Assembly (NCBI RefSeq): GCF_003334355.1
Contig: NZ_QOWP01000009.1
From: Escherichia coli
GTDB taxonomy: Bacteria > Pseudomonadota > Gammaproteobacteria > Enterobacterales > Enterobacteriaceae
Strand: one strand, 5' to 3'
DNA length: 64,000 nucleotides
The translations under genes and the position numbers were made by a program. Positions 7,860 through 45,299 of the stretch are shown one piece after another (the first letter of the stretch is position 1; each line of letters opens with the position of its first letter). The notes below the pieces were generated by a model. It saw only the letters and a program-made list of their open reading frames with translations, had not been told where the DNA came from and searched no databases.

Positions 7860-8855
7860 ATGAAAAAGAAAAGACCCGTACTTCAGGATGTGGCTGACCG
7901 TGTAGGCGTGACCAAAATGACGGTCAGCCGTTTTTTACGCAACCCGGAGCAGGTTTCCGTCGCTCTACGCGGCAAGATTGCCGCGGCTCTTGATGAACTG
8001 GGCTATATTCCCAATCGTGCGCCCGATATCCTCTCTAACGCCACCAGCCGGGCGATTGGCGTCCTGTTACCTTCTCTCACCAACCAGGTTTTCGCGGAAG
8101 TATTACGCGGAATCGAAAGCGTCACCGACGCGCACGGTTATCAGACCATGCTGGCGCACTACGGTTATAAACCGGAAATGGAGCAAGAACGCCTCGAATC
8201 CATGCTCTCCTGGAATATCGACGGCCTGATCCTCACCGAACGTACCCACACGCCGCGCACCTTAAAGATGATTGAAGTGGCGGGTATTCCCGTGGTGGAA
8301 CTGATGGACAGCAAGTCGCCATGCCTTGATATCGCCGTCGGTTTTGATAACTTTGAAGCAGCACGCCAGATGACCACTGCCATTATTGCTCGCGGGCATC
8401 GCCACATTGCCTATCTCGGCGCACGTCTCGACGAACGTACTATCATCAAACAGAAGGGATACGAACAGGCGATGCTGGATGCAGGCCTGGTGCCATATAG
8501 CGTGATGGTTGAGCAATCTTCTTCTTACTCTTCCGGTATTGAACTGATTCGCCAGGCGCGGCGGGAATATCCGCAGCTGGATGGCGTGTTCTGTACGAAT
8601 GATGACCTGGCGGTCGGCGCGGCGTTTGAATGTCAGCGTCTGGGGTTAAAAGTTCCTGACGATATGGCGATTGCCGGTTTCCACGGTCATGACATTGGTC
8701 AGGTGATGGAGCCACGACTTGCGAGCGTGCTGACGCCGCGTGAGCGGATGGGCAGTATTGGCGCTGAACGCCTGCTGGCGCGTATTCGTGGCGAATCTGT
8801 GACACCGAAAATGTTAGATTTAGGTTTCACCTTGTCACCGGGCGGATCTATTTAA
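7860..8855 (+). CDS. gntR: gluconate repressor GntR (LacI family, 331 aa)
   Basis: ORF track; N-terminal HTH MKKKRPVLQDVADRVGVTKMTVSRFL; synteny with gntK/gntU. Confidence 0.96.
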   Translation: MKKKRPVLQDVADRVGVTKMTVSRFLRNPEQVSVALRGKIAAALDELGYIPNRAPDILSNATSRAIGVLLPSLTNQVFAEVLRGIESVTDAHGYQTMLAHYGYKPEMEQERLESMLSWNIDGLILTERTHTPRTLKMIEVAGIPVVELMDSKSPCLDIAVGFDNFEAARQMTTAIIARGHRHIAYLGARLDERTIIKQKGYEQAMLDAGLVPYSVMVEQSSSYSSGIELIRQARREYPQLDGVFCTNDDLAVGAAFECQRLGLKVPDDMAIAGFHGHDIGQVMEPRLASVLTPRERMGSIGAERLLARIRGESVTPKMLDLGFTLSPGGSI

Positions 8856-8934
8856 GCCCACAAATTTGAAGTAGCTCACACTTATACACTTAAGGCATGG
8901 ATGGATATTGCTTCTGATATTGTCCGGCTGGACA

Positions 8935-8963
8935 ATGTTACCGATAACAGTTACCCGTAACAT
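8935..8963 (+). promoter_or_regulatory. two overlapping GntR operator palindromes in the gntKU promoter (ATGTTACCGATAACA / TGTTACCCGTAACAT)
   Basis: Matches the ATGTTA-N4-TAACAT GntR operator consensus, about 30-60 bp upstream of the gntK start; coordinates approximate. Confidence 0.6.
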
Positions 8964-8993
8964 TTTTAATTCTTGTATTGTGGGGGCACCACT

Positions 8994-9521
8994 TTGAGCA
9001 CGACTAACCATGATCACCACATTTACGTCTTGATGGGCGTATCGGGCAGCGGCAAATCTGCGGTCGCCAGTGAAGTGGCGCATCAACTTCATGCCGCGTT
9101 TCTTGATGGCGATTTCCTCCATCCACGGCGCAATATCGAAAAAATGGCGTCTGGCGAACCACTGAATGACGACGATCGCAAACCGTGGTTGCAGGCGCTG
9201 AACGACGCCGCGTTTGCTATGCAGCGCACTAATAAAGTGTCGCTGATCGTCTGTTCTGCATTGAAAAAACACTATCGCGACTTGCTGCGTGAAGGTAATC
9301 CGAATCTCTCTTTCATCTATTTGAAAGGCGATTTTGATGTGATTGAAAGCCGCCTGAAAGCGCGCAAAGGCCATTTCTTTAAAACCCAAATGTTGGTGAC
9401 GCAGTTTGAAACGCTGCAGGAGCCGGGTGCGGACGAAACCGATGTACTGGTGGTGGATATCGATCAACCGCTGGAAGGTGTTGTGGCAAGCACCATTGAG
9501 GTTATTAAAAAAGGCAAATAA
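8994..9521 (+). CDS. gntK: gluconokinase (thermoresistant), 175 aa, TTG start
   Basis: ORF track 8973..9521; the remembered GntK N-terminus MSTTNHDHHIYVLMGVSGSGKS (P-loop) begins at the in-frame TTG at 8994. Confidence 0.92.
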   Translation: MSTTNHDHHIYVLMGVSGSGKSAVASEVAHQLHAAFLDGDFLHPRRNIEKMASGEPLNDDDRKPWLQALNDAAFAMQRTNKVSLIVCSALKKHYRDLLREGNPNLSFIYLKGDFDVIESRLKARKGHFFKTQMLVTQFETLQEPGADETDVLVVDIDQPLEGVVASTIEVIKKGK

Positions 9522-9524
9522 GTA

Positions 9525-10865
9525 GTGACTACATTAACGCTTGTTTTAACAGCAGTAGGGTCTGTTTTACTGCTGCTGTTTTTAGTCATGAAGGCGCGTA
9601 TGCACGCTTTCCTGGCTTTAATGGTGGTGTCCATGGGGGCTGGCCTTTTTTCCGGTATGCCGCTCGATAAAATCGCAGCGACGATGGAAAAAGGGATGGG
9701 AGGCACCCTCGGCTTCCTGGCGGTGGTTGTCGCCCTGGGAGCTATGTTTGGCAAGATCTTACATGAAACCGGCGCAGTCGATCAGATTGCCGTCAAAATG
9801 CTCAAATCCTTCGGTCACAGCCGCGCGCATTATGCCATCGGCCTTGCGGGGCTGGTCTGTGCGCTACCGCTGTTCTTTGAAGTGGCGATTGTTCTGCTGA
9901 TTAGCGTTGCTTTCTCAATGGCGCGCCACACCGGTACGAACCTGGTGAAGCTGGTAATCCCATTATTCGCAGGCGTGGCGGCAGCGGCGGCGTTCCTGGT
10001 GCCAGGGCCAGCGCCAATGCTGCTGGCATCGCAGATGAACGCCGATTTTGGCTGGATGATCCTGATTGGCCTGTGTGCGGCAATTCCGGGAATGATTATT
10101 GCCGGGCCGCTGTGGGGTAATTTCATCAGCCGTTACGTGGAGTTGCATATTCCTGACGACATCAGCGAACCGCATCTCGGCGAAGGCAAAATGCCGTCCT
10201 TCGGATTCAGCCTGTCGCTGATCCTGTTGCCGCTGGTGCTGGTGGGGCTGAAAACCATTGCCGCGCGTTTTGTGCCAGAAGGCTCTACCGCTTACGAATG
10301 GTTCGAGTTTATTGGTCATCCGTTTACCGCGATTCTGGTTGCTTGTCTGGTGGCGATTTATGGCCTGGCGATGCGTCAGGGCATGCCAAAAGACAAAGTG
10401 ATGGAGATTTGCGGTCACGCGCTGCAACCGGCGGGGATCATTCTGCTGGTGATTGGTGCGGGCGGCGTGTTCAAACAGGTGCTGGTTGACTCTGGCGTAG
10501 GTCCGGCACTGGGCGAAGCGTTAACCGGCATGGGCCTGCCGATTGCTATCACCTGCTTCGTGCTGGCCGCTGCAGTGCGCATCATTCAGGGGTCTGCCAC
10601 CGTAGCCTGTTTAACGGCGGTGGGACTGGTGATGCCAGTCATTGAACAACTGAACTACTCTGGTGCGCAAATGGCGGCACTGTCGATTTGTATCGCTGGT
10701 GGTTCGATTGTTGTCAGCCACGTTAACGACGCTGGTTTCTGGTTGTTCGGTAAATTTACCGGCGCGACCGAAGCCGAAACGCTGAAAACCTGGACCATGA
10801 TGGAAACCATTCTCGGCACTGTCGGTGCCATCGTTGGGATGATTGCGTTCCAGCTGTTGAGTTAA
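9525..10865 (+). CDS. gntU: low-affinity gluconate:H+ symporter (GntP family, 446 aa), GTG start
   Basis: ORF track; polytopic membrane protein immediately downstream of gntK. Confidence 0.94.
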   Translation: MTTLTLVLTAVGSVLLLLFLVMKARMHAFLALMVVSMGAGLFSGMPLDKIAATMEKGMGGTLGFLAVVVALGAMFGKILHETGAVDQIAVKMLKSFGHSRAHYAIGLAGLVCALPLFFEVAIVLLISVAFSMARHTGTNLVKLVIPLFAGVAAAAAFLVPGPAPMLLASQMNADFGWMILIGLCAAIPGMIIAGPLWGNFISRYVELHIPDDISEPHLGEGKMPSFGFSLSLILLPLVLVGLKTIAARFVPEGSTAYEWFEFIGHPFTAILVACLVAIYGLAMRQGMPKDKVMEICGHALQPAGIILLVIGAGGVFKQVLVDSGVGPALGEALTGMGLPIAITCFVLAAAVRIIQGSATVACLTAVGLVMPVIEQLNYSGAQMAALSICIAGGSIVVSHVNDAGFWLFGKFTGATEAETLKTWTMMETILGTVGAIVGMIAFQLLS

Positions 10866-10921
10866 GTTTGTTCGCCCGGTAGTTGTGACGCTACCGGGTT
10901 CTTTTCGAAAAACTCTCCTCG

Positions 10922-11515
10922 TTACCCCTTCATCCACATTCGAATGCCGTCGAGGAACATCTGGGTTGCCATCATCACCAGAATCAATCCCATCAGGCGT
11001 TCAAGTGCGTTCACCCCTTTCTCGCCCAGCAGACGTAAAAATAGCGAAGACTGTAGCAGGATGACAAAGGTGCCGCCCCAGGCCAGCAGCAGAGCAATCA
11101 CCAGATGCCCCATCTGATTCGGGTACTGATGAGACAACAACATCAGCGTGGCGAGAATAGTCGGCCCGGCGACTAACGGAATTGCCAACGGCACGATAAA
11201 TGGCTCTTCACCTGCAGGAAGCCCGCTGCTATTTCCTGAAGCGCTGGGGAAAATCATCTTAATGGCGATCAGAAACAGAATGATGCCGCCAGAAATGGAG
11301 ACGGTTTCTGCTCGCAGGCTGAGAAATGCCAGAATTTTCTCACCCGCAAACAGGAACACCAGCATCACCAGGAGAGCAATAAGCAACTCTCGCACCATGA
11401 TTGCCCGCCGTCTTTTCGGTTCAGTATGTTTCAGTACGGACATGAAAATAGGCAGGTTTCCGAGCGGATCCATAATCAGGATCAATAAAACTGCTGCAGA
11501 AATGATTTCATTCAT
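10922..11515 (-). CDS. yhgN: MarC-family inner-membrane protein (197 aa)
   Basis: ORF track; hydrophobic multi-TM sequence; synteny between gntU and asd. Confidence 0.88.
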   Translation of the reverse strand: MNEIISAAVLLILIMDPLGNLPIFMSVLKHTEPKRRRAIMVRELLIALLVMLVFLFAGEKILAFLSLRAETVSISGGIILFLIAIKMIFPSASGNSSGLPAGEEPFIVPLAIPLVAGPTILATLMLLSHQYPNQMGHLVIALLLAWGGTFVILLQSSLFLRLLGEKGVNALERLMGLILVMMATQMFLDGIRMWMKG

Positions 11516-22566: not shown

Positions 22567-22983
22567 ATGGAAAGAATAATGCAAAACAGAAAATGGATTT
22601 TGACCTCGCTGGTAATGACTTTTTTCGGCATCCCCATTCTGGCGCAGTTTTTGGCGGCGGTTATTGCCATGCTGGGTGTCGGACTTGCCGGTATTATTGA
22701 AGTTTGTAATATCTTTATCACGCCAACAATTTACCTTCTGCTCAACGTCTTTATGCTGACGCTGGGGGCGATAATAATATTTTTCTCTGGTCGCGTGTGG
22801 GCCGGTGATAGCGCGCCAGAAAACAGAGAAATAGCCGTCTGGCGGCAATGCTTTTTTCTCTTACCCGCGCTATTAACCCTGGTTGGCTGGATAATCACGC
22901 TACATCTGGCAGATTATCAATTTCGCCAGATGGGAGCTGGTTGGTTGGCAAACCTTATGCTTCCCTGGTTGGCGTTTTTTTAG
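22567..22983 (+). CDS. hypothetical small polytopic membrane protein (138 aa, about 4 predicted TM segments)
   Basis: ORF track; strongly hydrophobic helices (ILTSLVMTFFGIPILAQFLAAVIAMLGVGLAGII...); ends at TAG 22981-22983; not recognised as a named family. Confidence 0.5.
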   Translation: MERIMQNRKWILTSLVMTFFGIPILAQFLAAVIAMLGVGLAGIIEVCNIFITPTIYLLLNVFMLTLGAIIIFFSGRVWAGDSAPENREIAVWRQCFFLLPALLTLVGWIITLHLADYQFRQMGAGWLANLMLPWLAFF

Positions 22984-23012
22984 TCTCATTAGTGGGTGGT
23001 GAGTACTGGTGG

Positions 23013-24083
23013 ATGGTCATTATTCCCGTTGGGGCGCATATCAGTTTTTCGCTGGGATACGCCTGGCCGACCAGATATCCTTTATCCGGCACGTCCGGAC
23101 TACGTTGCCGTAACTTACTCCTGTTTCTACTTCTCTTACTTGGTATTGTCGCCGGGTATCAGGCCCATTTATATAAGCAGCAAAATCCTGGTGTCGGTGT
23201 ACGCGAAAATATTGATATCTGGGCCTGGCGACCCGATAAACTCAATAATCGACTGACGCCGCTGCGTGGCAAACCGCAAATTCAGTTTAGGCAAAACTGG
23301 CCGCGAATCGATGGCGCCACGGCTGCGTACCCAATTTATGCTTCTGCATTTTATGCATTAAGTGTAATACCAGAGGATTTTCACGTTTGGGATTATCTGG
23401 AAAACTCTCGTACGCCAGAAGCATATAACAAAATCGTTAAGGGCGATGCTGATATTATTTTCGTGGCGCAACCTTCCGGTGGGCAAAAAAAACGTGCAAA
23501 GGAATCTGGTGTCACTTTGCTGTACACCCCCTTTGCCCGTGAAGCATTCGTTTTCATCGTCAATGCGGATAATCCGGTTAATTCCCTGACTGAACAACAG
23601 GTGCGTGACATTTTCAGTGGTGCAATTACCAATTGGCGTGCTGTTGGCGGTAACGATCAGGAGATCCAGACCTGGCAGCGCCCGGAAGACTCTGGCAGCC
23701 AGACAGTGATGCAATCACAGGTCATGAAAAATGTCCGCATGATCTCGCCGCAGGAAACGAAAGTGGCAAGCGTGATGGAGGGAATGATTAAAGTCGTTGC
23801 CGAATACCGTAATACAAACAACGCAATAGGCTATACCTTCCGCTATTACGCGACGCAAATGAATGCTGATAAAAATATAAAATTGCTAGCGATTAACGGT
23901 ATTACACCGACGGCGGAAAACATTCGCAACGGCAAATATGCGTACATCGTCGATGCATTTATGGTGACGAGAGAAAATACAACGTCAGAAACACAAAAAC
24001 TGGTCGAATGGTTTTTAACGCCGCAGGGGCAGAGTCTGGTAGAAGATGTGGGATATGTGCCGCTGTATCCAACAATGGAATAA
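23013..24083 (+). CDS. PstS-family (phosphate-binding-protein-like, PBP_like_2) periplasmic binding protein with N-terminal hydrophobic anchor; start uncertain (ATG 23013 or GTG 22992)
   Basis: ORF track 22848..24083 (its first ~48 codons overlap the upstream membrane ORF out of frame and are discounted). Motifs DGATAAYPIYASAFYAL, RPEDSGSQ, AIGYTFRYYA, LLAINGITPTAENIRNG parallel PstS GAGATFPAPVY / RADGSGTS / AIGYVEYAYA / PTEENF. Confidence 0.7.
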   Translation: MVIIPVGAHISFSLGYAWPTRYPLSGTSGLRCRNLLLFLLLLLGIVAGYQAHLYKQQNPGVGVRENIDIWAWRPDKLNNRLTPLRGKPQIQFRQNWPRIDGATAAYPIYASAFYALSVIPEDFHVWDYLENSRTPEAYNKIVKGDADIIFVAQPSGGQKKRAKESGVTLLYTPFAREAFVFIVNADNPVNSLTEQQVRDIFSGAITNWRAVGGNDQEIQTWQRPEDSGSQTVMQSQVMKNVRMISPQETKVASVMEGMIKVVAEYRNTNNAIGYTFRYYATQMNADKNIKLLAINGITPTAENIRNGKYAYIVDAFMVTRENTTSETQKLVEWFLTPQGQSLVEDVGYVPLYPTME

Positions 24084-24108
24084 CGCTCGAGAGAAAGGAA
24101 TCAGCGAG

Positions 24109-25101
24109 ATGAATAAATTCACCGGTGTTTTACTATTAGGCACGGCGTTACTGGCGGGATGTGTCGACCGGGAAGGGTACTATAACAGCGTTAGGGAAGA
24201 AGAGAGCCATGGACTGACGTCTCTGCGGGGGCAACCTGCATTACGTTACAGCGATGATTGGTCAAGATGGCCGAGAGTGTACGGCGCTACAGCCTTATAC
24301 CCGCTGTATGCCTCCGCGTATTATAAATTAGTACCCGAGCCAAAAGATAAGGATCGAACCTCGCTGGCCTGGCAGGCGTATGGTTTGCAGCAAACCCGAA
24401 CAGCTGAAGCCTACGATAGTCTGATTAAAGGTTCCGCGACGGTTATTTTTGTTGCACAACCGTCGGAAGGACAGAAAAAACGTGCAGAAGAAGCGGGTGT
24501 TAAACTGAAATATACCGCTTTCGCCCGCGAAGCCTTTGTCTTTATCGTTGATATTAATAACCCGGTAAATTCTCTCTCTGAGCACCAGGTTAAAGATATT
24601 TTTAGCGGCAAAACTAGCCGCTGGAATAAAGTAGGTGGTAGTGACGAACATATAAAAGTCTGGCAGCGCCCTGAAGATTCTGGAAGCCAAACGATTATGA
24701 AGGGGTTGGTTATGCAAGACACCCCAATGCTGCCAGCTAAAAAATCCACTGTGATTGATCTTATGGGCGGTTTAATTACTGAAGTTGCCGACTATCAAAA
24801 CACGCCATCTTCCATTGGGTACACCTTCCACTATTACGTCACTCGTATGAATGACAATATGCTCAAAATGCGCAAGCAGATTAAACTTTTGGCTATAAAT
24901 GGCGTTGCGCCTACCGAGGAAAATATCCGCAACGGCACTTATCCATACATTGTGGATGCCTATATGGTGACGCGTGAAAATCCCACGCCGGAAACGCAGA
25001 AATTTGTTGACTGGTTTATAAGTCAGCAGGGGCAACAGTTGGTAGAGGATGTGGGGTATGTGCCGCTGTATGAAGCATCCCCCGAATCATCAGGACAATA
25101 A
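24109..25101 (+). CDS. PstS-family binding-protein paralog, predicted lipoprotein (330 aa)
   Basis: ORF track 24046..25101; ATG at 24109 gives MNKFTGVLLLGTALLAGC (lipobox LAGC); roughly 60% identical by eye to the upstream paralog across the mature domain. Confidence 0.75.
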   Translation: MNKFTGVLLLGTALLAGCVDREGYYNSVREEESHGLTSLRGQPALRYSDDWSRWPRVYGATALYPLYASAYYKLVPEPKDKDRTSLAWQAYGLQQTRTAEAYDSLIKGSATVIFVAQPSEGQKKRAEEAGVKLKYTAFAREAFVFIVDINNPVNSLSEHQVKDIFSGKTSRWNKVGGSDEHIKVWQRPEDSGSQTIMKGLVMQDTPMLPAKKSTVIDLMGGLITEVADYQNTPSSIGYTFHYYVTRMNDNMLKMRKQIKLLAINGVAPTEENIRNGTYPYIVDAYMVTRENPTPETQKFVDWFISQQGQQLVEDVGYVPLYEASPESSGQ

Positions 25102-25388
25102 TGATGAATATAATCAGACTTTATATTTATCCGTTATTTCTCGGCTTTGTTATTGTGCCGTTGTTGGTGTGGCCGATGGTGGTTGCGCTGGCTGCTTGTA
25201 TTATCACGCTGAGTTTTCTGGGGGAAATGCTGTTCTCAATCCCGCTCATGATCAGGCGTATTTCACTTCTGCAATTACAACTTTGGTTATCGGCTGAATA
25301 TGCGCTTTTCTTCTGTGTAATGTGTTGCGTTGGTTGGCAATTTACTCGTAGAACTCAATCTGAATTGAAAAGCAGGCTCCATTGTTGA
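25101..25388 (+). CDS. hypothetical small membrane protein (95 aa); may be the N-terminal part of a gene interrupted by an in-frame stop
   Basis: ORF track; ATG overlaps the stop of the preceding gene (TAATG); hydrophobic helices. Confidence 0.4.
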   Translation: MMNIIRLYIYPLFLGFVIVPLLVWPMVVALAACIITLSFLGEMLFSIPLMIRRISLLQLQLWLSAEYALFFCVMCCVGWQFTRRTQSELKSRLHC

Positions 25389-25703
25389 TTGGTATTCGCA
25401 CCGATCTATTTATGGTTGATCCTCTGGAATATCATTTTTTACATCGCGCCAGCGAAAATTGCGTTGCTGGAAAGTATCCGCAATTTCTTTCTGCTTGTTG
25501 TCTGGCTACCCCTGAATTTTTCGCCATTTTGGCCTCAGCCGTGGACGGATTTTATCGGTCCAATAAGCGCACAGCTTGGTTTTGCGTTGGGATATTATTG
25601 CCAGTGGTGCAGCAAAAATAGATGCCAGATACGGAAGTTGAGTGAGTGGGGAACGTGCTTAAGTTTTGTTACGTTGGGTATGATGGCGTGGGCTTTGCGG
25701 TAA
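25389..25703 (+). CDS. hypothetical small membrane protein (104 aa); same frame as 25101..25388, separated from it by a single stop codon
   Basis: ORF track; both ORFs are in frame 0 and contiguous, so one stop codon splits a roughly 199-codon membrane-protein reading frame. Confidence 0.4.
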   Translation: MVFAPIYLWLILWNIIFYIAPAKIALLESIRNFFLLVVWLPLNFSPFWPQPWTDFIGPISAQLGFALGYYCQWCSKNRCQIRKLSEWGTCLSFVTLGMMAWALR

Positions 25704-41496: not shown

Positions 41497-42813
41497 TCAA
41501 ATCACCATATTCAGCAGCAGACAGCCTACCAGACCGCACACCGAGATAATGGTTTCCAGCATCGACCAGGATTTGATGGTCTCGCCGATAGTCAGGTTAA
41601 AGTACTCTTTGAACAGCCAGAAGCCCGGATCGTTCACATGAGAGAAAATCACACTACCGGAACCAACCGCAATAACCATCAGCTCCGGGCTAACACCCGT
41701 CGTTGCAATCAGCGGTGCCGCGATACCACCCGCAGTGATTGCCGCAACGGTTGCGGAACCCAGCGCGATACGCAGTACGGCAGCAATCGACCAGGCCATC
41801 AGCAGCGGAGAAATGTTGGTTTCGTGCATCATGGAAGCAATGTATTTGTCCACGCCGCTGTCTACCAGCACCTGCTTGAACGCACCGCCACCACCGATGA
41901 TCAACAGCATCATCGCAATGATTTTGATGGAAGAAACCAGCGTGTCGTTAATCTGATCCATTGAACGACCACGGTTTAGACCAAAGGTGAACATCGCAAT
42001 CAGCACGGCAATCAGCGTAGCCATTACCGGGTCACCGAGGAACTCCGCTACCGGCAGGAAAGCGTGACCTTTCGGCAGGATCATTTCGGCAATCGCACGC
42101 ATCGCCATCAGTACTACCGGCACCAGAGAGGTCCAGACGCTGACGCCAAAGCTCGGCATCTCTTCTTCGCTGAAGGTTTTCGCGCTGTAGAGACCTTCCG
42201 GGATTGGCTTATCGATACCTTTCAACACGCGAGCGTAAACCGGACCGGCGAGAATCACGGTCGGGATTGCCAGAATAGTACCGTACAGCAGGGTTTTACC
42301 CATGTCGGCATTGAAAATGGTGGCAATCGCAGTCGGGCCCGGATGCGGTGGCAGGAAGCCGTGGGTCACAGACAGTGCAGCCGCCATTGGTACACCAACA
42401 TACAGCAGTGGAATATTCGCAGAAGCCGCGATGGTAAACACCAGCGGCAGCATCAGCACAAAGCCCACTTCATAGAACAGGGCAAAACCAACGGTAAAAC
42501 CGGTCAGTACCACCGCCCACTGGATGTGTTTTTTACCAAATTTGGCAATCAGCGTGGTGGCGATACGTTGTGCGCCACCGCAGTCTGCCAGCATTTTGCC
42601 CAGCATTGCGCCAAAACCCATGATCAGGGCAAGGCTACCGAGCGTCCCGCCGACACCGGCTTTGATGGAGCCAATAACTTTATCCAGCGGCATTCCTTGC
42701 ATTAATCCAACAGCAAGCGCCACGAGGACGAGAGCGATGAAGCCGTTCATTTTGAAGCGGATCATCAGGAGCAACAACAAGATTACACCGATAGCAACAA
42801 TGACTAATGGCAT
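41497..42813 (-). CDS. gntT: high-affinity gluconate transporter (GntP family, 438 aa)
   Basis: ORF track; MPLVIVAIGVILLLLLMIRFKMNGFIAL... Confidence 0.97.
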   Translation of the reverse strand: MPLVIVAIGVILLLLLMIRFKMNGFIALVLVALAVGLMQGMPLDKVIGSIKAGVGGTLGSLALIMGFGAMLGKMLADCGGAQRIATTLIAKFGKKHIQWAVVLTGFTVGFALFYEVGFVLMLPLVFTIAASANIPLLYVGVPMAAALSVTHGFLPPHPGPTAIATIFNADMGKTLLYGTILAIPTVILAGPVYARVLKGIDKPIPEGLYSAKTFSEEEMPSFGVSVWTSLVPVVLMAMRAIAEMILPKGHAFLPVAEFLGDPVMATLIAVLIAMFTFGLNRGRSMDQINDTLVSSIKIIAMMLLIIGGGGAFKQVLVDSGVDKYIASMMHETNISPLLMAWSIAAVLRIALGSATVAAITAGGIAAPLIATTGVSPELMVIAVGSGSVIFSHVNDPGFWLFKEYFNLTIGETIKSWSMLETIISVCGLVGCLLLNMVI

Positions 42814-42970
42814 GATTTACCTGGCCTTTCATTTGTTATGGGTAACGTCAATTTTCTGACGACAAACTCTAATTATCCCAATCGGGAACAGAGATATTGC
42901 GGCACCACGACTGATACCCACTAAAACTAATTATTGTAGTCAGATGTCAGGAGTATGTTTGGTACCCATG

Positions 42971-42989
42971 TGAATGATACGGGTAACAT
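42971..42989 (-). promoter_or_regulatory. GntR operator in the gntT promoter/leader (ATGTTACCCGTATCATTCA on the gntT-sense strand)
   Basis: Same palindrome family as the gntK operators; lies about 160 bp upstream of the gntT start; coordinates approximate. Confidence 0.6.
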
Positions 42990-43117
42990 CTGGCGTTTGA
43001 GAATCACCAGAGCGGGGTAAATTTAAATTATGAGAGGTTGGTCATATTATCGCGGGGAAACGAAGGGAGGGATTTGCCAAAGCAATGCTGCGCCAACGTC
43101 TGGCACATGTTCAATGT

Positions 43118-43173
<56 letters not shown>

Positions 43174-43807: not shown

Positions 43808-45299
<1,492 letters not shown>

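Follow-up and report, generated by a model that had tools for sequence, protein, structure and literature searches.

The window analyzed here, a stretch of 64,000 nucleotides (64 kb), is Escherichia coli chromosome, with strain HS as its best likeness. The interval 7600-11200, which carries gntRKU, matches several E. coli chromosomes at 100% identity and was found in 5,414 of 5,426 complete genomes. The annotation of a near-identical record gives the gene order yhhW, gntR, gntK, gntU, asd, glg, glp, rtc, mal, gntT, nfuA and gntX. The open reading frames (ORFs) of the window match the annotated coordinates of gntR, gntK, gntU and gntT (Table 1), and all four proteins score above the curated cut-offs of their NCBIfam equivalog models. 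An earlier, sequence-only reading of this DNA had placed the gene for the repressor together with its two GntI target promoters in one window; this stands, with gntR, gntK and gntT confirmed by annotation or profile. The distance between gntRKU and gntT is ~34 kb in E. coli, so that the E. coli map alone accounts for both GntI loci falling in a single 64-kb window.

Table 1. Coordinates of the gluconate genes, control elements and predicted leader helices in the window.
Feature	Position	Strand	Basis
gntR, gluconate repressor, 331 aa	7860-8855	+	ORF; annotation of the record identical over 7600-11200
gntK-gntU regulated operon	8994-10865	+	ORFs, annotation, NCBIfam equivalogs
gntK	8994-9521	+	TTG start; NCBIfam gluconokinase equivalog, 373.6 bits
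gntU	9525-10865	+	NCBIfam gluconate transporter equivalog, 915.8 bits
gntK CRP-like site, TTTGA-N6-TCACA, center 8872.5	8865-8880	+	Conserved block in 8-genus alignment
gntK core promoter, inferred: -35-like TTGCTT (8908-8913), 17-bp spacer, -10-like GACAAT (8931-8936)	8908-8936	+	
gntK operator O1, ATGTTACCGATAACAG	8935-8950	.	1 mismatch to ATGTTA-N4-TAACAT; PWM; conservation
gntK operator O2, CAGTTACCCGTAACAT	8948-8963	.	2 mismatches; PWM; conservation
gntT, high-affinity gluconate transporter	41497-42813	-	NCBIfam NF011560, 931 bits (cut-off 744)
gntT proximal operator, TTGTTATGGGTAACGT (gene strand ACGTTACCCATAACAA)	42833-42848	.	Consensus and PWM scans; conservation
gntT 5' leader, ~155 nt, predicted helices P1-P4	42814-42967	-	14-sequence consensus fold; 5' end inferred from -10
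Leader helix P4	42863-42860 with 42850-42847	-	Predicted
Leader helix P3	within 42892-42868	-	Predicted
Leader helix P2	within 42944-42917	-	Predicted
Leader helix P1	42966-42961 with 42906-42901	-	Predicted
gntT distal operator, + strand ATGATACGGGTAACAT (gene strand ATGTTACCCGTATCAT)	42974-42989	.	1 mismatch; PWM; conservation
gntT -35-like hexamer TTCTCA	42998-43003	-	Promoter scan; conserved block GATTCTCA in 16-genus alignment
gntT CRP-like site, TATGA-N6-TCTCA, center 43038.5	43031-43046	-	~-71.5 from inferred start
nfuA-gntT spacer: terminator-like hairpin (43107-43089) and REP element (43120-43159)	43089-43159	-	Terminator scan, Rfam

The repressor scores 776 bits against the NCBIfam equivalog NF011563 (cut-off 433), and the solved structures nearest to it are LacI-family regulators. 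Despite its name, E. coli GntR is a member of the LacI/GalR family. With the GntR of B. subtilis it shares the name and the role of a gluconate-responsive repressor of a gnt operon; the B. subtilis protein and the 'GntR family', however, have a FadR-type fold with a winged helix and recognize another operator, and the common name is therefore misleading. The alignment of E. coli GntR with LacI covers residues 4-316 of the 360 in LacI, and GntR ends 14 residues further on, which indicates that it is without the C-terminal tetramerization helix of LacI. Reviews describe constitutive GntR as a repressor of gntK, gntU and gntT and cAMP-CRP as an activator of these genes, and in PgntK, PgntT and PidnK reporters repression by GntR was more than 5-fold (PMC13386637). 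A position weight matrix (PWM) scan of the window found no GntR-type site upstream of gntR itself.

Palindromes of the type ATGTTA-N4-TAACAT had been proposed upstream of both gntK and gntT in the sequence-only reading. Four such 16-bp palindromes, each with 1-2 mismatches, outrank every other motif match in the 64 kb; two are upstream of gntK and two upstream of gntT. At <=2 mismatches the consensus has 6 matches in the window against 1.74 expected, a count reached by 0 of 100 shuffled sequences, and 4 of the 6 fall inside ~500 bp of gnt promoter DNA. With the full PWM the four operators score 19.3-23.7 bits, the next best position in the window reaching 11.05, and in leave-one-out scans each omitted operator ranks within the top 4 of ~64,000 positions; the gntK pair and the upstream gntT site that had been proposed are all among these four. 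The remaining consensus or PWM matches, among them those at 2822, 3660, 27523 and 29729, score <=12.5 bits and were treated as chance. The three weak matches that were placed lie inside the ggt or rtcR genes or in the glpD-glpE spacer, and 3660 and 27523 are the two extra two-mismatch matches to the consensus.

The two palindromes upstream of gntK, O1 and O2, overlap, as had been claimed: they have 3 bp in common, their centers are 13 bp apart, and together they span 31-59 nt upstream of the TTG start at 8994. Just upstream, TTGCTT and GACAAT, separated by 17 bp, may constitute the gntK promoter, to judge from conservation and spacing only; a stringent consensus promoter scan called no promoter on the gntK strand. 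With these hexamers as the promoter, transcription of gntK would start near 8943, which places the CRP-like site near -71 and the operators at roughly -9 to +20. The element at 8865-8880, ~-71 from this predicted start, would, given its fit to the consensus and the literature on CRP control, be the CRP site of the gntK promoter. In such an arrangement O1 and O2 would cover the end of the -10 hexamer, the start site and the first ~20 transcribed bases, so that bound GntR would block RNA polymerase.

Footprinting by alignment of seven orthologous loci, from Salmonella, [Enterobacter] lignolyticus, Cedecea, Cronobacter, Buttiauxella, Erwinia and Pantoea (an 8-genus alignment), showed the same elements. 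A LacI-family gntR lies directly upstream of gntK in all seven of these loci, a flanking pirin was called in five of the seven and gntU in six. In the alignment the CRP-like site, TTGCTT, GACAAT, O1 and O2 are conserved blocks amid variable DNA; the 6 Enterobacteriaceae genera conserve both operators and have an identical O2 core, GTTACCCGTAACA.

For gntT, the sequence-only reading had described a single operator at 42971-42989, ~160 bp upstream of the gene, and had taken this distance from the ATG to imply a long leader. The distance is correct (the near edge is 161 nt and the center 168.5 nt upstream of the ATG at 42813) and a leader of ~155 nt is borne out, but the coordinates of the site are 42974-42989, and it is not the only one: a proximal operator, 19-34 nt before the ATG and inside the leader, had been missed. 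The last six gene-strand bases of the distal operator, TATCAT (42979-42974), are the -10 hexamer of gntT, and a promoter scan of the gntT strand returned TTCTCA-18-TATCAT with its -10 within this operator. From this promoter the gntT start should be 42967-42969, which yields the leader of ~155 nt and places the center of the CRP-like site at ~-71.5 and the proximal operator at ~+127. Two genome-wide TSS papers gave no usable entry for gntT or gntK, and the start points of both genes are predictions from their -10 hexamers. In 1998 Peekhaus and Conway reportedly found two gntT operators bound by GntR, the first over the -10 and the second centered near +120, with CRP at -71; the computed position of the proximal operator, ~+127, and the reported +120 are a few bases apart.

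The gntK and gntT promoters both have a conserved CRP-like site centered ~71 bp upstream of the predicted start. This common position makes them promoters of one design, namely class I CRP, a weak -35 and operators over -10/+1. The combination of a CRP-like site and a weak -35 at both promoters would fit activation by cAMP-CRP, with gluconate releasing GntR; CRP activation of gntT has been reported (PMC2230225, PMC12002343). A second promoter at the proximal operator, where TTGACG stands just before the site, was considered and rejected, as it has no matching -10 and no match in the promoter scan. On the other side of the control region, the terminator-like hairpin and the REP element of the spacer, the latter a sub-threshold match to Rfam naRNA4/REP (27.5 bits), probably separate the control of gntT from nfuA transcription.

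Conservation at gntT was followed by scanning one genome per species, which gave 80 gntT loci from the order Enterobacterales. Among these, 29 species of Enterobacteriaceae have one and the same distal operator sequence, ATGTTACCCGTATCAT, and a proximal operator at a fixed -26.5/-27.5 from the ATG. In a 16-genus alignment the two operators have column identities of 1.00 (distal) and 0.99 (proximal), the intervening DNA one of 0.52, and GTTACCCATAACAA of the proximal operator is invariant in all 16 genera. Further invariant blocks of this alignment are GATTCTCA, at the -35, and the CRP-like site at 43031-43046, in which the TGAC and TC.CA columns are invariant in the 16 genera. All four operators, those of gntK included, stand out as almost fully conserved islands among the Enterobacteriaceae genera, in surrounding DNA that varies.

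The arrangement of the gntT operators differs between the families of the order. Tandem operators with centers 14 bp apart, the same design as O1/O2 of E. coli gntK, are present in 40 of 79 Enterobacterales species (Erwiniaceae, Yersiniaceae, Pectobacteriaceae and relatives); in Dickeya the tandem forms a perfect 30-bp palindrome, ATGTTACCGGTATCATGATACCGGTAACAT. Five species have one operator site and four have none. Split pairs in the Enterobacteriaceae have spacings of 65, 133, 136, 139, 140, 141, 143, 144, 147 or 148 bp, the 65-bp spacing occurring in Pseudescherichia vulneris and Escherichia sp. ESNIH1. Operator architecture has been switched between enterobacterial families. Every locus class has gntT operators >90 nt from the ATG, beside the proximal site of the Enterobacteriaceae at -26.5/-27.5, and a long gntT leader is thus general.

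A matrix built from the four window sites only was applied to other promoters of the K-12 GntR regulon. At edd it found ATGTTACCGGTAAAAT (20.3 bits), 195-210 nt upstream of the ATG and just after zwf, and a second site, TTGTTACGCGTAACAA (20.5 bits), inside codons 5-10; in the idnD-idnK intergenic region it found ATGTTACGCATAACGT (20.9 bits). The two edd operators have the split layout seen at gntT, 222 bp from center to center. Two of the window sequences have already been used as operators in published work. The O1 16-mer, ATGTTACCGATAACAG, is the GntR recognition site in PMC10450161, which gives the consensus ATGTTACCCGTAACAT; with this site control responded to gluconate, and function was lost when the site was deleted or received a 2-bp insertion at its center. 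A cell-free biosensor took the distal gntT sequence, ATGTTACCCGTATCAT, as its E. coli GntR operator and TATCAT as the -10; in it GntR repressed the promoter carrying this sequence and gluconate relieved the repression (bioRxiv 10.1101/2023.01.10.523462). GntR operator sequences thus already serve as parts in synthetic biology.

Taken together, these results indicate that the four palindromes are almost certainly operators of the GntR encoded at 7860-8855, through which it controls both GntI transcription units. The present analysis supplies the operator sequences and their statistical excess, shows where they lie with respect to the genes and how extremely they are conserved, and gives the family of the repressor; GntR binding to these sequences, gluconate induction and CRP dependence are taken from the literature. 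The system is that of the K-12 GntI regulon (Tong 1996; Porco 1997; Izu 1997; Peekhaus and Conway 1998), with the same genes, organism and operator sequences, two operators per promoter and a CRP site ~71 bp upstream; nothing of substance differs in the window, which comes from another strain. Work from the 1990s had described the operators, the presence of two of them at both gntT and gntK, and the short map distance between the loci; all of this is already known, and the original finding, K-12 GntI control in another strain, adds nothing to E. coli biology. The gain of the check is a clean confirmation together with one correction, the missed proximal gntT operator. The unphased spacing of the split operators, the tandem and split architectures and the structured leader may be new, as modest findings from computation only.

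At gntT, GntR bound to the distal operator, which has the -10 inside it, would exclude RNA polymerase and block initiation. The proximal operator, ~127 nt into the ~155-nt leader and just before the ribosome-binding site, would then add a second layer of repression. It is most likely an independently bound roadblock or second clamp, rather than the end of a strictly phased loop, because the spacing between the operators varies with helical phases over a whole turn, because the distance from the proximal site to the ATG is fixed, because GntR is without the LacI C-terminal tetramerization segment and because half of the order has no distant site. The placing of the proximal gntT site in the leader (~127 nt from the predicted start), and that of the K-12 edd site in codons 5-10, is roadblock-like and resembles PurR at purB and the cre sites of CcpA, where a dimeric LacI-family repressor is likewise bound far downstream of the start, within the transcribed region. 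In contrast to PurR at purB, the downstream gntT site does not stand alone but accompanies a site that overlaps the promoter, and elongation block by GntR is putative.

A loop of ~141 bp, closed by touching GntR dimers on the distal and proximal operators and trapping the promoter, is a rather unlikely alternative to the roadblock. The two operators are equally conserved and ~141 bp apart in most genera (140, 141 or 144 bp in 21 of 30 species), but spacings of 65 and 133-148 bp also occur, and helical phasing between the split operators is not kept, with phases of 0.0-0.95 turn across the 30 species, which argues against an obligatory phased loop. The LacI family has classic looping repressors among its members. 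In lac (O1/O2/O3) and gal (OE/OI), as at gntT, a LacI-family repressor has an operator in the core promoter and an auxiliary operator >100 bp downstream in the transcribed region, and K-12 edd has the same split arrangement (222 bp center to center). GntR differs from these in that it is without the LacI tetramerization helix, in that the gntT spacing is unphased across genera and in that many relatives have adjacent operators, 40 of 79 Enterobacterales species using such operators with no distant site; moreover, the proximal site is fixed to the ATG and not to the promoter. The unphased spacing weakens a rigid loop in particular; flexible or protein-assisted loops are possible, as is a GalR-like dimer-dimer contact by GntR. 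That the spacing is not phase-locked bears on whether GntR acts at the proximal site by DNA looping or by blocking elongation.

The sites may additionally, or instead, be used by IdnR (GntH), the paralogous LacI-family regulator of the GntII system with the same palindrome type, a reading that we regard as improbable, even though Tsunedomi et al. reportedly described cross-control of GntI genes by GntH in 2003. Deletion of gntR alone was reportedly found by Peekhaus and Conway in 1998 to make the GntI genes constitutive. The DNA-binding domains of the two regulators must be close, as the score of GntR against the IdnR equivalog model is 402 bits, and the idnD-idnK site ATGTTACGCATAACGT fits the window matrix (20.9 bits); PidnK is in turn repressed by GntR (PMC13386637). 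Against a leading role for IdnR, idnR is absent from the 64-kb window and the literature (including PMC13386637) has the GntI genes constitutive on loss of gntR alone, and IdnR would in any case add to the explanation by GntR, not replace it. That the palindromes are chance matches of no regulatory role has a negligible probability and is already refuted by conservation and published functional use: the two other two-mismatch matches in the window (3660 and 27523) do look random, but the four sites exceed the shuffles, stand >8 bits above the next PWM match, all lie within gnt promoter DNA, are invariant across genera amid variable flanks, and include two exact 16-mers already used as operators (PMC10450161; bioRxiv 10.1101/2023.01.10.523462).

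The gntT leader that carries the proximal operator has a predicted structure of its own. The consensus fold of a 14-sequence subset contains four helices, P1-P4, with 95% paired cells against 27-45% with slid partners. Helix P1, found by eye in E. coli, pairs GGGUACC (42966-42961) with UGGUGCC (42906-42901), ~60 nt downstream, and starts at 42966, ~1-3 nt from the predicted 5' end (42967-42969). Its pairing is kept with other sequences in Enterobacter (GCACU/AGUGC), Klebsiella (GGCGCC/GGCGUC), Kluyvera (ACGCCAUCG/CGGUGGCGU), Pseudocitrobacter (GCGUCG/CGACGC) and Trabulsiella (GCGCU/AGCGC); it is maintained by compensatory changes in at least 6 lineages and is present in the minimum-energy fold of most of 29 species. 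The ~60-nt domain enclosed by P1 contains a hairpin and unpaired bases that hardly vary (AUAACAGCC.GCUA); two more hairpins come after it.

In an unrefined alignment, 75% of P1 cells are paired against 65% in shuffles, cells with a double change number 24 against 10.3, and the covariation score is 0.328 against 0.196, a level reached by 0 of 500 shuffles, with slid controls at 0.04-0.15. An alignment-free test, in which the 5' arm of each of 14 genus representatives was paired with its own 3' arm or with that of another species, gave a cognate P1 pairing of -13.1 against -9.05 +/- 0.70 kcal/mol (z -5.8; 0 of 20,000 permutations) and z of -3.1 for P2 and -3.6 for P3, with three control segment pairs at z 0 to +1.3, values to be read with the relatedness of the species, which inflates such pairing tests, and with the partial derivation of the structure from the same sequences. 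In this test P4 had no cognate advantage (z -1.1), and P2 is too different between clades for one consensus. Folded alone, the E. coli leader is unremarkable (z -0.8), and RNAalifold on the 29-species MAFFT alignment returned only a trivial operator hairpin; the structure emerged only with the well-aligned 14-sequence subset and the alignment-free test. The leader has no match in Rfam 15, either at the gathering threshold or at E up to 10, and our search found no relevant literature on the gntT leader or on control at the RNA level; the covarying fold is unlisted in any RNA database.

The conserved P1 near the predicted 5' end is reminiscent of the 5'-terminal stabilizing stem-loops of the ompA 5' UTR type; it is more than a simple hairpin of that kind, however, as it closes a ~60-nt domain with conserved unpaired bases. 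Our best guess is that the leader would serve as a 5'-terminal stabilizing, insulating fold, and a binding site for some factor is a possible alternative. That the gntT leader is a functional structured cis-acting RNA, and that the operators were in addition rebuilt from tandem to split in the Enterobacteriaceae lineage, is a tentative proposal, to which we give somewhat less than an even chance. In the rebuilding, the tandem pair with its 14-bp spacing may have been split, its second operator becoming fixed beside the ribosome-binding site. The leader would travel with PgntT, so the fold, if true, could matter to users of PgntT sensor parts. At the start of the leader, an ORF of 9 codons (42940-42967, - strand, ATG at 42967; ATG GGT ACC AAA CAT ACT CCT GAC ATC TGA in E. 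coli) was also considered and rejected: its ATG is absent in E. albertii and in most other genera, and the ORF is probably meaningless.

Some other features of the window were noted alongside the GntI loci. The gene gntX (43808-44491, - strand) is annotated as a DNA utilization protein, and the PWM scan of the window found no GntR-type site in its upstream region, nor any of >=12 bits in the window beyond the four gnt operators; the 'gnt' in its name is historical and not the mark of a GntR target. Between glgP and glpD (window ~22576-25700, + strand), the record of strain 127 has two PstS-family phosphate-binding genes, one of them frameshifted in that record, and a hypothetical gene; the same interval of K-12 presumably contains only a pseudogene remnant. 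At 2320-4723 (- strand) the window has intact yrhB and yrhA and a 392-aa gene annotated as an Hcp1-family type VI secretion effector (tssD), the product of which has a C-terminal VHH...EPYH stretch that looks nuclease-like. The yrhB/yrhA/tssD arrangement is as in strain HS. Strain 127, otherwise near-identical, has an IS1 and a truncated yhhY there, and 2320-4723 does not align to it; the HS-like or strain 127-like content marks the first 5 kb of the window as a variable spot. The gene for the small RNA RyhB (Rfam RF00057, 83 bits) lies at 5599-5663 (+ strand) between yhhY and yhhX, the position expected for this known RNA.
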